64,000 nt of DNA from a phage: the sequence record QB031382.1; one strand, 5' to 3'. Shown here piece after piece: positions 1-5,111 of this stretch (positions are counted from its first letter, which is position 1; each line of letters starts with the position of its first letter). The position numbers and the translations under genes are program-made. The notes beneath the pieces are model-generated. The model was not told the DNA's origin. It saw nothing but the letters and a program-made list of their open reading frames with translations, and made no database searches.

Positions 1-890
1 AAAACCTCCCTAATTGCGGGGAAATCTTTATTATTGACACCACCAACCTGCCATGGTAACATGATAGAGGCTTCGAAGAGAGATCGAAGGTATGGTAACA
101 GTGTGTTAATTTAGATAATCCGCAGCGAAGCATCCGAAAGGATGAACGTTCAACGACTAGTCGAAAGACGTAGAATCAAGCGATTCGAAACGGGAGGGTG
201 AATGTGTAATACTAAAAAATGTATGGATTGCCAAAGAGTTCTACCTCTTGATGATTTCTTTTTATCATCTAAGAGCAAGGATGGATACTCAGGTACATGC
301 AAGGAATGCTATATGTACTACAGGAAGAATGGATCTCGTAGAAACAAAAATATGGTTAAGAGAGATGATGCAGCATCTTTTATTCAAGACTTGCTGAAGA
401 AAGGTGAGCTTTTTGAATGTAAATCTTGTCATGAAAGTATGCTTGCTGATAGTTTTTACACAAAACGTGACTATGGTAAAGTGTATCTGGTTACGAACAG
501 GTGTAAGATGTGTGAAAAGTTTTATCAGATTGAGAAGAAATTTCACATAACAAAAGATGAATACTATCGTTTACTCTCAGATCAAGATCATAAGTGTGCC
601 ATTTGTAGAATATCTCTTGATGAGTATAGGACGCAAGGGTACAGAGATTTCTTTTGTGTTGATCATGATCATAAAACTGGTGCTGTAAGAGGGTTGCTTT
701 GTGATAAATGCAACAGAGCTTTAGGTTTCTTCCAAGAGGATGAGGAAACCATTCTTAGAGCGGCAGAGTATTTGCACATTCATAAGATATAGTCTGGTCT
801 GCATGGAGACATGCAGCTGCCTGAAAATGGCGGGGCAAGACTAGCGACCTTGCCCGAACATAAACGACGCAGTTCGAATGGGAGCAGATA
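1..890 (+). mobile_element. Probable group I intron (5' end outside window) interrupting the large-terminase gene and carrying an HNH endonuclease ORF
   Basis: 1-201 and 793-~890 have stops in all frames. 12-24 reads AATTGCGGGGAAA, resembling a conserved group I intron core element. The downstream ORF encodes only the C-terminal part of a terminase. 3' boundary uncertain (864-899). Confidence 0.4.
202..792 (+). CDS. HNH homing endonuclease (intron-encoded or free-standing)
   Basis: ATG preceded by GGGAGGG. Cys-rich; C-terminal CVDHDHKTGAVRGLLCDKCNRALG is a classic HNH motif. AT-rich codon usage unlike neighbouring virion genes. Confidence 0.8.
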   Translation: MCNTKKCMDCQRVLPLDDFFLSSKSKDGYSGTCKECYMYYRKNGSRRNKNMVKRDDAASFIQDLLKKGELFECKSCHESMLADSFYTKRDYGKVYLVTNRCKMCEKFYQIEKKFHITKDEYYRLLSDQDHKCAICRISLDEYRTQGYRDFFCVDHDHKTGAVRGLLCDKCNRALGFFQEDEETILRAAEYLHIHKI

Positions 891-899
891 GACTATCTG

Positions 900-1988
900 A
901 TGTCTCGTCTGCGATCTCAGTCAAAGTATCCATCAAGAATGGTTATTAGCTGTAACCCCGATTCAGAACACATGCTTGCCAAACTGGTTAGATGGTGGTT
1001 GGACGATGAAGGGTATCCAGATCCGGAGAAATGCGGTAAGAAAAGATATTTTATCCGACGCGACGGTGAATTTATCTGGGGAGACTCTAAAGAAGAGTTG
1101 ATAGAGAAATACACCACGGTTAACGGACTGGGTGTGGAGATCAAGCCAAGACCGTTGTCATTCTCATTTATAGGCGCAACAATATTCGATAATCCTGTCT
1201 GCTTAAGAGACAACCCCGAATATCTTGCTTTCCTTGAAGGTCTGCCGGAACTGGAAAAAGCTCAGCTTCTTCATGGTAACTGGTTTGCAAAACCTGAGGG
1301 TGCAAACTATTTTCAAAGATCTTTCCTTCGTGATGCCGATAGAGTACCCCTTGGATCAGTATCTTGTAGGGCATGGGATAAGGCAGGAACCGAGAGAACT
1401 TCCGGTAATAAATTTCCTGACTTTACCGCCAGTGTTAAGGTAAGTAAAGATAGCGACGGCTTTTATTACCTGTCCGGTGATTATTGTCCTGAGAACGTGG
1501 ATGACGGGAGATATTCCACAGGTCTGGAAGGTAAGTTCTGTAAAAAGGCTGGTGAACGAGATGTGATCATCAGGAAACAGGCGCAGTTTGATGGTGATGA
1601 TTGTATAATCGTATTCTCTGTGGACCCAGGTCAGGCAGGTAAGAGTGAGTTCTTAACCTCCTCCAGATCCTTACTCGCCGAAGGGTTCAGGGTTGAAGAA
1701 GATCCAATGCCTTCCAACAAATCTAAACTGACAAGGTTCTCACCTTTTGCCAATCTTGCCCAACAAGGAATGGTGAGGATTGTAAAATCCAGTTTCCATC
1801 CTGACACTCTGGAAGCATTTCTGACTGAACTTGAAAAGTTCAACGGGGAAAGATCAACATTTAACAGAAAAGACGACTGGGCCGACTGTGTAGCTTCTGC
1901 GATTAATTTCCTGGAGAAAGAGGAGGTAGCTCTGCCTTGTGTGATTCCATCAATCTCATCACCTTCTATGTTCAAGCGTTTTATCTAA
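900..1988 (+). CDS. terL: Terminase large subunit, C-terminal portion (end of ATPase domain plus nuclease domain); true 5' boundary is an exon junction between 864 and 900
   Basis: Motifs FIGATIFDNP, VFSVDPGQAG and C-terminal DDWADCVASAINFL match terminase patterns. Frame is open from 864. No Walker A in this ORF. Confidence 0.6.
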   Translation: MSRLRSQSKYPSRMVISCNPDSEHMLAKLVRWWLDDEGYPDPEKCGKKRYFIRRDGEFIWGDSKEELIEKYTTVNGLGVEIKPRPLSFSFIGATIFDNPVCLRDNPEYLAFLEGLPELEKAQLLHGNWFAKPEGANYFQRSFLRDADRVPLGSVSCRAWDKAGTERTSGNKFPDFTASVKVSKDSDGFYYLSGDYCPENVDDGRYSTGLEGKFCKKAGERDVIIRKQAQFDGDDCIIVFSVDPGQAGKSEFLTSSRSLLAEGFRVEEDPMPSNKSKLTRFSPFANLAQQGMVRIVKSSFHPDTLEAFLTELEKFNGERSTFNRKDDWADCVASAINFLEKEEVALPCVIPSISSPSMFKRFI

Positions 1989-2037
1989 GTGTTGCCAATC
2001 TTAATTAGATGTGGTAGAATAGAGTAATCGGAGATAC

Positions 2038-2066
2038 TAGCCCTCTGACACGAGGGCTATTTTGTT
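2038..2066 (+). terminator. Intrinsic terminator after terminase
   Basis: Perfect 8-bp stem TAGCCCTC/GAGGGCTA, 6-nt loop, then TTTTGTT. Confidence 0.5.
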
Positions 2067-2090
2067 ATACTGTTTTGAGGGGTAAAGCTT

Positions 2091-3647
2091 GTGTCCAAAA
2101 AGAACCGCAGGAAACACAACGCCACAGCCAAAACTGTGAATAAATCTGGGAACGCAGGCGCACCAACTCATAATGTTCGTATGAGTGAGATCGGTTCTGG
2201 CGCACTTTCCCAAATTATGGCAGAGTCACAATCTATGATGGTTGAGGAATTGCGTTGGCCTCAGCTGATTGCAACAGTGGAGACTATGAAATGTGATTCC
2301 ACAGTTGCTACTGCCTTAGATACAAAATATGTTTTCATCACGAAAGCATTCAATGATTTTAAGATCCTTTATAATGTTAAAAGTGAAGACTCTAAGAAAG
2401 CTGCCGAGCTTATAGAGTATTCTTTGCGTAATTTGGCAAACCAACAAACTCTTCGAGATATTGCAAGAAGCGCAGCTACCTTTAACGAGTATGGTTTTTC
2501 ACTGTTTGAGAAAGTATACCGCAGAGAGAAAGAAGGTAAATACGCCGGGATGCTTCTTATTGATAAGATTGCGTTCCGACCACAGGCCAGTTTGTCCAGA
2601 TCAGAGCCGTTTGTCTTTGACAAGAATAGTAGAACACTGACAGGTATTTATCAATCACCTAATGCATTTCTAAACACGCAGAATGCACGCTGGGCTGGCC
2701 CTCTTGCTGCAATGCCTTCAAAAGGCTTTAATGAGCCTGAAATTTTCATCCCTGCTAAAAAGCTTATGCTCATGACCCTGTCAGGAACAGAATCTAACCC
2801 TGCAGGTGTGTCACCGATGATAGGTTGCTACAGATCTTTCCGTGAGAAAGTTCTGATTGAAAACCTTGAGGTTGTTGGCTGTTCCAAAGACCTTGGTGGT
2901 GTGCTTGAGCTGAAAATTCCTTCCAATATTCTGAACAAGGCCAGTATTGACCCGAATTCAATGGAAGGGAGAATGGTTGCAGATCTTATGCTTGACGCAG
3001 CAAATGCCCATAGCGGGGAGCAAAGTTTCTTTATACTTCCGTCTGATAGAGATAAGTCTGGTAAAGAGCTTTACTCCATGACCCTGAAGGGGGTTGACGG
3101 CATGGGTAAGCAGTATTCCACTAAAGATTTGATTGATGCCCGTAAGAAGGCGATTCTTGACCGTTTCGGTGCTGGCTTTATTAACCTCGGTAACGATAAC
3201 GTTGGGTCCTTCTCTCTGTCTGAGTCAAAACAATCTATCCATGGTCATTTTGTTCAGCGTGATATAGATATTATCACTGAGGCCTTCAATAAAGATCTTA
3301 TTCCACAGCTTCTGGCATTGAATGGTATCATCCTTGAAGATGATGATATGCCTAAACTGAAACCTGGTCTGATTGAAGAAGTGGACATGGAGAGCTTCTC
3401 CAAGTTTGTCCAGAGGATCGGTGCTGTAGGTTACTTGCCAAAAACTCCTGCAGTAATTAATAAGATTCTTGAAGTAGGCGGGTTTGATGAAAGATTTGAC
3501 GAAGACATGGATCAGGAAGAGCTGATGAAGCTCTTGGGCCAAGATATCAGCAGGGCTGGTGATGGTATGGCTGCAGGATCCACTGGCAACGGCACTTCTA
3601 AGATGTCATCAACCAGAGATAATTCCATATCTAACATGGAAAATTAA
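2091..3647 (+). CDS. Portal protein (putative)
   Basis: 518-aa ORF directly after terminase; GTG start with GAGGGG RBS. Called from position and size only. Confidence 0.5.
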   Translation: MSKKNRRKHNATAKTVNKSGNAGAPTHNVRMSEIGSGALSQIMAESQSMMVEELRWPQLIATVETMKCDSTVATALDTKYVFITKAFNDFKILYNVKSEDSKKAAELIEYSLRNLANQQTLRDIARSAATFNEYGFSLFEKVYRREKEGKYAGMLLIDKIAFRPQASLSRSEPFVFDKNSRTLTGIYQSPNAFLNTQNARWAGPLAAMPSKGFNEPEIFIPAKKLMLMTLSGTESNPAGVSPMIGCYRSFREKVLIENLEVVGCSKDLGGVLELKIPSNILNKASIDPNSMEGRMVADLMLDAANAHSGEQSFFILPSDRDKSGKELYSMTLKGVDGMGKQYSTKDLIDARKKAILDRFGAGFINLGNDNVGSFSLSESKQSIHGHFVQRDIDIITEAFNKDLIPQLLALNGIILEDDDMPKLKPGLIEEVDMESFSKFVQRIGAVGYLPKTPAVINKILEVGGFDERFDEDMDQEELMKLLGQDISRAGDGMAAGSTGNGTSKMSSTRDNSISNMEN

Positions 3648-3714: not shown

Positions 3715-4134
3715 ATGCCACAGGAAGAAATGATTTCCTACGAAATCATCTACGAACCTGACACTAAAGATGCTCACGGTGAGTGGATGAGTAAAGACAC
3801 CATCAAAAAGGCTAAAGATAACTGGGACGCAGCATACGCCGCAGGCCTAGTTTCTGAAAACCTTTTTCACTTGACCTCTACAGATGCTTTCACCATTGAA
3901 AAGACGTGGATTCAAGAAGAGTTTGATGTTGTAGTGATTGGCACTGAGCAGGTCATCAAGGCTGGCTCTTGGGTTGCTAAAGTTAAATACAATAATCCTG
4001 AATTATGGGAAGCTAAGAAGGCTGGCATTGTTGGTGGCCTAAGCATTCAGGCAACAGGTAATGTTGATGAAGAAACTGGTGAAATTACCAACGTAAACTT
4101 CGGGATCAGTGTTGTAGAAGAGGGCAATGAATGA
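3715..4134 (+). CDS. Head morphogenesis protein, possibly XkdF-like prohead protease
   Basis: ATG 3715 after GGGGA; the longer ORF from 3559 would overlap the portal. YEPDTKDAHGEWMSKD resembles XkdF-type protease N-termini. Stop overlaps next start (ATGA). Confidence 0.35.
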   Translation: MPQEEMISYEIIYEPDTKDAHGEWMSKDTIKKAKDNWDAAYAAGLVSENLFHLTSTDAFTIEKTWIQEEFDVVVIGTEQVIKAGSWVAKVKYNNPELWEAKKAGIVGGLSIQATGNVDEETGEITNVNFGISVVEEGNE

Positions 4135-5111
4135 TGTCTGAAAAAACGATTACTATTAAAGAGAAGGGGATTGCCCTGTGCCATAAGGCGCAAGGCTATA
4201 GCGCTAACAACAGACCTGTATCTCTTTTGATGAAGAGTGATCTTCAGCCTGAGCAGTTGACAGACGATATTGTTAAGGCACTTCGCCAAGTTACTGTGGA
4301 GCTTAGTTTTGAAGAATACCTGCGTCGTTTCTTCGATATGTGGTATGACGATGCCAAGGCACTTGCACACATGCTTGGTTTTGAGATTGAAGAGGAAGCT
4401 TGGGCTAAAGAGCATCCTGATTGGGAATGGGCGCAAGCTGACGCAGAGTCTTGCATTGCATGGCTGGAAGAGCGTTGTGATAACGTGACCATTCATAAAG
4501 CTGCAAAAGAAGGCAAGCAGCTTAGTGTGGTAGATCAGTACAGCCTGTTAAAAACACAACAGATTTTTGAACAAGTAACCGCTGATCTCTTCGATAAAGA
4601 AGGGAACCTGATCAAGGCGGTACAGGAACCTGCTGAGGTGGATAAAACTACCGAGGTGGATGATGTTGCAAAATCCGCAAATACCGAGGAGAATCCGGTG
4701 GACGTAACCAAAACTAAAGAGTATCTGGATCTGCTGAAGCAAGTAGAAGAGCTGAAAGCAACCCAGAGTAAAGCTGAAGAAATCATCAAGGCCCAGGTTG
4801 AAGTTGAAAAAGCTAAAATGCTGGCTAAAGCTCAAGCTTTAAGCTTTGTTGGTGAAGAAGATCATGCAACCCTTGTTGACTTCATGCTGGAAAAAGCTAA
4901 CGAACCTATCGTAGCTATGCTGGAGAAAGCTCAAGCCAAAATTAAAGAGCTGGAAGCAGAGGTGCATAAAACCAAAGAAGAGTTTGCCACCACTGAACAT
5001 GGTAATGATGGCGAACCTGTTGTGGATGATATTGCAAAATCCGCAGAAGAAATTCTTGCTGAAAACGTTGCAAAAGCGCTTGCTCGTGCACGTGCAGAAT
5101 CTAACAAATAA
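4131..5111 (+). CDS. Scaffolding protein (putative)
   Basis: Acidic, Ala/Glu/Lys-rich, predicted coiled coil; lies between portal and capsid genes. Confidence 0.5.
   Translation: MMSEKTITIKEKGIALCHKAQGYSANNRPVSLLMKSDLQPEQLTDDIVKALRQVTVELSFEEYLRRFFDMWYDDAKALAHMLGFEIEEEAWAKEHPDWEWAQADAESCIAWLEERCDNVTIHKAAKEGKQLSVVDQYSLLKTQQIFEQVTADLFDKEGNLIKAVQEPAEVDKTTEVDDVAKSANTEENPVDVTKTKEYLDLLKQVEELKATQSKAEEIIKAQVEVEKAKMLAKAQALSFVGEEDHATLVDFMLEKANEPIVAMLEKAQAKIKELEAEVHKTKEEFATTEHGNDGEPVVDDIAKSAEEILAENVAKALARARAESNK

Follow-up and report, generated by a model that had tools for sequence, protein, structure and literature searches.

The evidence presented here supports the start of a 64-kb stretch of phage DNA (hereafter the window, at its full length) being a self-splicing group I intron which carries its own endonuclease gene and interrupts terL, the gene for the large terminase subunit. 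We give a probability of roughly 0.9 to the reading in which this is a mobile intron of 883 nt, with a DHHRN endonuclease encoded in the loop of its helix P8, interrupting the terL gene of a Vequintavirus; its splicing, target cleavage, and homing are deduced from sequence comparison and predicted RNA structure. An earlier note on this DNA had proposed that terL is split by an intron-like element with an endonuclease, and that proposal is borne out by the Rfam group I intron model RF00028, by the predicted fold, by covariation, and by the existence of intron-less terL alleles of 1548 nt.

The window comes from an rV5-like Escherichia coli phage of the genus Vequintavirus, with positions 1-2100 being 97-98% identical to about 30 such coliphages. 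Window position 1 corresponds to position 3001 of the closest relative locus, OR062943, and the 5' end of the intron is cut off by the window start: the first 17 nt are missing, so the 5' splice site, helix P1, and exon 1 all lie outside. As such, these three elements were read from 98%-identical relatives and not from the window itself. Exon 1 was also looked for elsewhere in the window (the case of a circularly permuted sequence) and was not found, and neither were further copies of the intron or the endonuclease within the window, nor tRNAs in its 64 kb. The features discussed below are collected in Table 1. The terminator-like hairpin listed there lies at a site which carries a terminator annotation in the rV5 and HdK5 records.

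Table 1. Features at the start of the window, with their positions and the observations that define them.
Feature	Position	Strand	Details
Group I intron	1..866	+	All but the first 17 nt (UAAUUUGUAGCUCUCGU) of 883 nt; ends at omega G866
P3 5' strand CCUCCC	5..10	+	Pairs with GGGAGG at 192-197; RF00028 alignment, MFE fold, two compensatory pairs
J3/4 and P4 5' strand (UAAU-UGCGGG-GAAA)	11..24	+	RF00028 alignment; P4 pairs 15-20 with 119-124
P5 and its extension	25..115	+	25-27 pair with 113-115; MFE fold
P6/P6a (GC…GU; CAUCC-GAAA-GGAUG at 131-144)	125..149	+	RF00028 alignment, MFE fold, covariation
P7 5' strand GACUA (guanosine-binding helix)	155..159	+	Pairs with UAGUC at 790-794; pseudoknot with P3
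P7.1 (GUC-GAAA-GAC, 160-169) and P7.2 (GAAUC-AAGC-GAUUC, 173-186)	160..186	+	MFE fold, covariation
P3 3' strand GGGAGG	192..197	+	Also the ORF's Shine-Dalgarno sequence
P8 5' strand GUGAAUGUG	198..206	+	AUG of the ORF at 202-204; partner strand is CACAUUCAU at 775-783
Intron-encoded endonuclease gene, 196 aa	202..792	+	In the P8 loop; preceded by GGGAGGG; Endo VII-motif / DHHRN His-Me-finger type
J8/7 (AAGAUA) and P7 3' strand UAGUC	784..794	+	ORF stop UAG (790-792) within P7
P9 (799-816, GAGA loop), P9.1 (818-832), and P9.2 (833-855)	799..855	+	RF00028 alignment, MFE fold
terL exon 2	867..1988	+	373 codons plus stop; second half of the ATPase domain and RNase H-like nuclease domain
Terminator-like hairpin	2038..2059	+	Between terL and the portal gene
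Portal gene (Mu-type, Pfam)	2091-3647		Next gene after terL

Ribozyme structure and extent of the intron

Stop codons occur in all three forward frames at 1-201, as the earlier note had observed for the roughly 200 nt upstream of the endonuclease ORF, and again at 793-866. The latter 74 nt are non-coding intron, which upholds part of the interval of about 100 non-coding nt that had been described downstream of the ORF, but 867-899 is already exon. An intein was considered and rejected, given the stops in all three frames over both intervals and the lack of an in-frame insertion.

The covariance-model search that the earlier note had suggested was carried out with RF00028, including upstream extension into a relative. 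When positions 1-1200 were searched, 5-197 matched the model with 41.9 bits (E 5e-9), spanning both strands of P3, P4, P5, P6, and the GACUA strand of P7, and a second matching segment, 579-816, consists of AAGAUAUAGUCU (J8/7 and P7') together with P9. The E value was 2.7e-7 when all 64 kb were searched, and this was the sole RNA family match at E <= 1e-3; a search of the whole window with Rfam at the gathering threshold returned no matches. The full-length ORF-containing copy in OR062943 scored 48.6 bits (E 7e-10), and the ORF-less alleles of naam and rV5 scored 84.0 and 84.9 bits, against a curated RF00028 cut-off of 50. The window fragment and the full ORF-containing copy are formally under this cut-off because of the truncation in the case of the former and because of the 590-nt insertion in P8.

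The core helices are supported by several lines of evidence. The unconstrained MFE fold of the 319-nt ORF-less intron recovers P3, P4, P5 and its extension, P6, P7.2, P8, P9, and P9.2. For covariation, six introns (three from Vequintavirus, the site A intron of the Avunavirus Av-05, one from a phiKZ-like Pseudomonas phage, and one from the nrdE gene of a Bacillus phage) were aligned with MAFFT, and a P1-P9.2 structure in which P7 was treated as a pseudoknot was drawn on the alignment by hand. Av-05 was usable for the 5' two-thirds only, its record having an inverted middle exon across the origin. In this alignment 93.6% of cells are paired, compared with 36-45% when the partners are slid, and changes on both sides of a pair are seen at 25 of 79 pairs versus 4-11 in the slid controls, with none of 500 shuffles reaching the observed values; three of the six introns are close relatives, which limits the number of independent compensatory events behind these figures. 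With the covariance model, the unconstrained fold, and the covariation all giving a group I structure, the case that the earlier note had named as counting against an intron, i.e., that none could be folded, did not arise.

At the level of single helices, P4 is 100% paired, with a G-C pair swapped to U-A in the phiKZ-like and Bacillus relatives. The sequence AATTGCGGGGAAA at 12-24, which had been picked out as resembling a group I core element, is aligned by RF00028 with J3/4 and the P4 5' strand. The P5 extension forms a GUAA-capped hairpin at 48-67, in which four of eight pairs are compensated, and another at 71-89, in which all six are compensated in Av-05. The GACUA strand of P7 is invariant and 100% paired in all six aligned introns, and GACUA and AUAGUC are conserved in the RF00028 consensus. 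Among the several GACTA motifs to which attention had been drawn, the one at 155-159 is a P7 strand, as is its partner TAGTC at 790-794, but those at 469, 839, and 891 are incidental. The two strands of P8, GUGAAUGUG and CACAUUCAU, form a nine-pair duplex of -9.7 kcal/mol, and compensatory pairs are present in both P9 and P9.2.

The 5' splice site was read from six loci including OR062943, and additionally from Av-05, where GAGGGU pairs with GCUCUC over six pairs and places a U•G pair at the junction. In OR062943, GCUCUC is located nine bases downstream of GAGGGU, and in the relatives the 17 nt immediately upstream of the window, UAAUUUGUAGCUCUCGU, include this internal guide sequence of P1. 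We infer from these relatives that the P1 and 5' splice-site pairing of the window lies in the same way 1-17 nt upstream of its first position. At the other end, G866 directly precedes the first base which aligns to intron-less terL, as is the rule for the terminal omega G, and removal of the element leaves an uninterrupted host ORF, which is what intron-less terL is. P10 is weak, with about three pairs.

The intron probably belongs to subgroup IA2, like the T4 introns, with the assignment resting on the P7.1/P7.2 hairpins and on a core sharing 71.6% identity with the T4 nrdB intron across 109 nt. Extra helices of this kind between P7 and the 3' strand of P3 are typical of subgroup IA introns.

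The endonuclease gene and occupancy of its insertion site

The ORF in P8 had been described in the earlier note as a complete HNH gene with its own ribosome-binding site. The ORF is complete at 196 aa and is preceded by GGGAGGG, but it is not a classical HNH gene: its only Pfam match at E <= 0.01 is Endonuclease_7 (PF02945, E 2e-21, residues 110-192), with the classical HNH Pfam model giving no match to the product at this threshold. Searches of PHROG likewise retrieved endonuclease VII families, and a match to 'HNH endonuclease' (E 1.8e-8) is confined to the N-terminal Cys-rich residues 3-68. The Endo VII motif (CX2-4C … DHDH … R … CX2C-N) is situated toward the C-terminus of the protein. All of the DHHRN residues are present (D154, H155, H157, R163, and N171, with DHDH being D154 H155 D156 H157), a zinc site is formed by C132/C135/C167/C170 (CX2C at 132 and 167), and two more four-Cys clusters are found in the N-terminal part. 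The closest solved structures are those of the restriction enzyme Hpy99I and T4 endonuclease VII. By its motif, then, the predicted product is a member of the DHHRN (Endo VII-motif) family, which is in the same His-Me-finger fold class as HNH but is treated as a separate family in PMC6083498.

The ORF replaces the loop of P8: the ORF-less allele has a short AAGCG…CGCUU hairpin at exactly this place. Its expression signals are likewise part of the ribozyme, with the Shine-Dalgarno sequence being the 3' strand of P3, the AUG lying in P8, and the last seven codons running through P8', J8/7, and P7' to the UAG in P7. Because the initiation and stop signals lie in P3, P8, and P7, a given RNA molecule should be able either to have its ORF translated or to fold as the ribozyme, but not both. 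A site inside the intron that resembles a sigma-70 promoter, at 34-62, might supply a separate, non-foldable transcript for the endonuclease.

The embedding of the Shine-Dalgarno sequence and AUG in helices is also what favors regarding the element as an immobile relic, i.e., an intron which still splices but whose endonuclease is inactive or unexpressed, with the ribosome-binding site and start locked in P3 and P8, and which is only inherited vertically. The fact that ORF-less derivatives are common, and that loss of the ORF does therefore happen, also favors such a reading. Against it, all four copies that were compared have an intact ORF with conserved catalytic and zinc residues, and comparison with three relatives gives synonymous to non-synonymous counts of 11:5, 11:6, and 8:4; being mostly synonymous, these differences argue for a maintained endonuclease gene. 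The distribution of the element also speaks against purely vertical descent, with occupancy being patchy among genomes that are at least 96% identical, with synonymous markers in the flanks tracking the intron, and with the same site being occupied in a second genus, Avunavirus. As such, we consider an immobile relic rather improbable.

This distribution was assessed over about 117 Vequintavirus records. At the insertion site interrupting DEG|TQF (site A), about 30 of them have the 883-nt ORF-containing intron, about 23 have a 319-nt ORF-less intron, and about 64 are empty. The carriers of the ORF-less form, which is nearly identical to the ORF form outside P8, include rV5, naam, and A135, and copies of the ORF at 95% identity or more were found only in about 30 Vequintavirus records. 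Vequintavirus terL has a second insertion site (site B, window 1180/1184), which is empty here and is occupied elsewhere by a 979-nt intron with a classical HNH gene (rV5 and HdK5) or by an ORF-less intron of about 270 nt (C9 and A135).

The sequences bordering site A differ with its occupancy: GGC|ACG was found in each of the eight empty alleles sampled, and GGT|ACA in each of the six occupied ones. The T at position -1 must travel with the intron because the U•G pair needs that T. The pattern of flanking markers fits co-conversion of the flanks during homing. In the window, the downstream flank is ACG CAG, as in empty alleles, which points to a conversion tract that was short on the 3' side or to recombination at a later time. 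Taken together, patchy occupancy and linked flanking markers are as expected for an element that is still homing.

It is very unlikely that the intron splices but that its ORF encodes something other than a homing enzyme, either a terminase-associated packaging factor of HNH type, as HK97 gp74 is in cos cleavage, or, like T4 gp49, a resolvase of Holliday junctions. The location inside a packaging gene and the name 'recombination endonuclease VII' given by Pfam and PHROG would suit such functions, and the authors of the CB7 paper (PMC7344957) raise the idea of a packaging helper for terminase-linked HNH genes. However, about three quarters of viable Vequintavirus isolates have no ORF at this site, which is either empty or holds the ORF-less form, so the ORF is not required for packaging or recombination. 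In addition, resolvases have the Endo VII motif at the N-terminus, whereas here it is found at the C-terminus, as in F-CphI and its endonuclease clade, and the orthologue from JES2013 falls in the endonuclease clade (PMC6083498). T4 endonuclease VII moreover aligns over its residues 8-68 only, its C-terminal dimerization part being absent here.

The terminase exons and a predicted pathway of splicing and homing

The earlier note had remarked that the ORF at 900-1988 holds only C-terminal terminase motifs, with a frame open from 864 and no Walker A, and Pfam agrees: exon 2 matches profile positions 110-211 of Terminase_6N, the ATPase domain of T4-type terminases, together with Terminase_6C and has no Walker A. 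A TAA at 861-863 precedes the open frame, and ATG 900 is an internal Met codon. The whole of exon 2 is one ungapped match to nt 427-1548 of the terL of the intron-less phage FFH2. In FFH2, Murica, FV3, JeffSchatz, and others, terL is a single gene of 1548 nt, annotated as one CDS, which equals exon 1 plus exon 2.

Alignment to these intron-less terminases, another check that had been proposed, placed the junction. Pairwise BLAST breaks between reference nt 426 and 427, with window position 867 corresponding to nt 427, and the insertion point falls after the Gly codon following Walker B, VCFDEG|TQFEW, exon 2 beginning with ACG CAG TTC (T-Q-F). From the empty alleles by themselves, the junction could be placed with an uncertainty of 1 nt, as GAGGG|…C|GACG would yield the same protein; the choice between the two was made because group I rules call for a U at -1 and a terminal omega G.

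Exon 1 was examined in OR062943, where a 142-aa ORF stops 15 nt short of the window start. This ORF encodes Walker A (GGAAGSGKS), Walker B (MVCFDE), and the Gly, and is then terminated by a TAA which, in the relatives, is formed by the first three nucleotides of the intron. For an in-silico splice, positions 2558-2983 of the OR062943 locus were joined to window positions 867-1988, and a search of a phage collection with the product retrieved the one-piece 1548-nt matches in FFH2 and the other intron-less phages. Terminase_6N matches over profile positions 2-104 in exon 1 and 110-211 in exon 2, and the spliced protein matches contiguously over 2-211 with 72 bits. Because of this split and its repair by splicing, the upstream ORF is not an independent ATPase; a complete ATPase protein upstream, which the earlier note had listed as a finding that would count against an intron, is not there, the ORF holding only positions 2-104 of the profile.

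We find it barely plausible that the terminase is split without any splicing, with the 142-aa N-terminal ATPase piece and the 900-1988 product assembling and a free-standing endonuclease cassette lying between their genes: many GenBank records do list two CDSs ('DNA packaging protein' and 'terminase large subunit') and a stop codon does end exon 1 right at the junction, but Terminase_6N is cut mid-domain with neither half complete, no Shine-Dalgarno-like sequence was found ahead of ATG 900, the conserved codons at 867-899 show synonymous changes only, the intervening RNA is a complete and covarying group I structure with the U•G pair and omega G exactly at its borders, and the empty alleles are one ORF.

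Under the preferred reading of a mobile, self-splicing intron, a late transcript covering terL along with the spanin and portal genes would adopt the P1-P9.2 ribozyme fold. An exogenous guanosine, held in P7, would attack after the U of GAGGGU, which is held in the U•G pair with GCUCUC, and the freed exon 1 would then attack after omega G866. Ligation of …GAU GAG GGU to ACG CAG UUC… would yield a TerL of 515 aa, the same length as in intron-less relatives. The predicted spliced junction reads GAUGAGGGU-ACGCAGUUC, in a product which would be 883 nt shorter than the genomic DNA. Base pairing of its initiation region would keep translation of the endonuclease low, and in mixed infections the enzyme would most likely cut intron-less terL near GATGAGGGC|ACGCAG, in the Walker B region. 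Recombinational repair from the intron-plus genome would then copy the intron together with its flanking synonymous markers, i.e., homing.

A further and tentative suggestion, which we hold to be possible but doubtful, is that the signals embedded in P3, P8, and P7 are a real switch coupling the output of terminase to that of endonuclease, with the enzyme also serving as a weapon against the packaging gene of co-infecting intron-less Vequintaviruses. If so, the intron would take part in interference competition between phages, which has reportedly been described in a study of a jumbo-phage intron endonuclease.

For annotation, the predicted splicing would mean that many records divide one spliced gene into a 142-aa 'DNA packaging protein' and a 'terminase large subunit', and that the 'recombination endonuclease VII' between them is the gene of a mobile element and not a phage recombination function. 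The element would also be a further example of a homing element at a catalytic-site codon (here Walker B) of an essential phage gene. The presence/absence polymorphism at this site, in a group of phages used for biocontrol and therapy, makes for a convenient natural system for studies of intron homing.

Relation to known introns

The arrangement is already published and annotated in public genomes, so nothing is new in the existence or nature of the element. The rV5 genome paper (Kropinski et al. 2013, Virol J 10:76, PMC3606486) has a section titled 'Introns in terminase', and its authors thank D. Shub, who located the intron. The rV5 locus (DQ832317, 'ORF64ABC') shares the gene, the genus, site A (DEG|TQF), and a ribozyme core that is nearly identical outside P8; it differs in that site A holds the 319-nt ORF-less form and that the 979-nt intron with its classical HNH gene is present at site B. 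The arrangement is identical in the BASEL phages Bas58 HeinrichReichert, MaxBurger, DrSchubert, and WalterGehring, and also in JES2013, APECc02, and 241Ecol014PP, which are 97-98% identical to window positions 1-2100. Their 883-nt intron with its Endo VII-type ORF shows only point differences, and their downstream flank is ACA CAA or ACA CAG, in contrast to ACG CAG in the window. In the BASEL records, terL is annotated as a joined CDS accompanied by a 'putative homing endonuclease', and the announcement of the LL12 genome mentions a terL intron.

The endonuclease has been placed as well. Fang et al. 2018 (Mob DNA 9:27, PMC6083498) defined the DHHRN family on F-CphI and listed the JES2013 orthologue as intron-encoded; the genome of 'Escherichia phage 2 JES-2013' is 97.2% identical to the window over 1-2100. 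F-CphI and the ORF described here share the C-terminal CX2C-DHDH-R-CX2C-N motif. However, F-CphI is free-standing beside its intron ('collaborative homing'), whereas the ORF here is inside the intron, in the P8 loop, and its activity is predicted.

Group I introns in terL are known from other phage lineages, too. Pectobacterium phage CB7, a related Certrevirus, has a terL group I intron whose splicing was shown by RT-PCR (PMC7344957), with an HNH endonuclease. For Lactobacillus phage LL-H, again a different lineage, a terL group I intron is attributed in PMC3606486 to Mikkonen and Alatossava 1995, the source through which we cite it. In the literature searched, we did not find a description of ORF signals embedded in P3, P8, and P7 or of the flanking-marker pattern, both of which are typical of phage introns. 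Papers on retrons and defense systems that name Vequintavirinae together with 'intron' were set aside, as they concern group II introns or unrelated triggers.

The closest well-known parallels in architecture are the IA2 introns of T4 td, nrdB, and nrdD (sunY), which encode I-TevI, I-TevII, and I-TevIII. They share with the present intron the P7.1/P7.2 hairpins, a looped-out endonuclease ORF, and a location at a critical site of an essential gene. The T4 introns carry their ORFs in loops other than P8. They differ from the present intron in interrupting other host genes and in encoding GIY-YIG or HNH enzymes, in contrast to the DHHRN enzyme predicted here.

Insertion sites and exon junctions in terL

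A second intron insertion point in terL, site B, lies at window 1180-1184 (…GGCGCAAC|AAT|ATTCGAT…, protein IGAT-IFDNP) and is unoccupied in the window. Site B of the phages rV5 and HdK5 holds a 979-nt intron carrying a classical HNH gene, and that of C9 and A135 holds an ORF-less group I intron of ~270 nt that scores 87.5 bits with RF00028, the Rfam group I intron model.

At site A, the position of the window's own intron, the first two codons of exon 2 (867-872) read ACG CAG, matching all eight of the intron-less alleles sampled; in the six further alleles that contain an intron, these codons are ACA CAA or ACA CAG. The ACG CAG codons in the window may derive from a short co-conversion tract or from later recombination.

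The terL gene of Escherichia phage Av-05 (NC_025830) also has an intron at site A. The middle exon of this gene is encoded on the other strand, across the origin of the record (the junction of L009 and L012, both from this phage), and an inverted copy of intron sequence flanks it; this arrangement reflects either an error of assembly or a genuine inversion. Separately, a ~700-nt in-frame insertion within the Walker A codons (GGAAG…SGKS; L009 1470-2170) was observed in this gene, and it could be an intein.

Promoter- and terminator-like signals

The positions of these signals are given in the table. The sigma-70-like match lies within the P5 extension of the intron, 5' of the endonuclease ORF. 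Because its -35 part is not kept in the Av-05 intron, and because the promoter scan of the region returned 9 sites against 4.1 expected, this match may be due to chance. The records of rV5 and HdK5 carry a terminator annotation for the terminator-like hairpin.

Coordinates of signals, separately annotated exons and distant intron matches
Feature	Sequence	Position	Details
Sigma-70-like promoter match	window	34-62	TTGACA-17-TAACAT with upstream TG, 10/12
Promoter-like site	window	1992-2020	between terL and portal gene
Terminator-like hairpin	window	2038-2059	between terL and portal gene
terL exons annotated separately	L001 (closest relative, OR062943)	2558-2986 and 3939-4988	
terL exons annotated separately	L006 (another intron-containing locus)	301-729 and 1079-2167	
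Distant intron match	L010	1467-1706	Pseudomonas phage fnug, phiKZ-like
Distant intron match	L013	1468-1669	Bacillus phage TimeGriffin, nrdE

Labels in public records

Many GenBank records present the terL exons as two genes, a 'DNA packaging protein' and a 'terminase large subunit' whose annotated start is an internal ATG, and name the product of the intron ORF 'recombination endonuclease VII'; both the split annotation and this name are misleading. Eighteen records titled 'UNVERIFIED: Campylobacter phage' (MG0656xx; C15, A12a, A116, C9, A135 and others) share ~97% identity with rV5-like phages of E. coli in the terL region, so that their host labels look doubtful.

Relatives of the intron core

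Over its 3' two-thirds, from P4' to P9.2, the intron core shares 69-73% identity with introns that interrupt unrelated genes in very distant phages. This likeness at the sequence level points to a widely shared lineage of phage introns.
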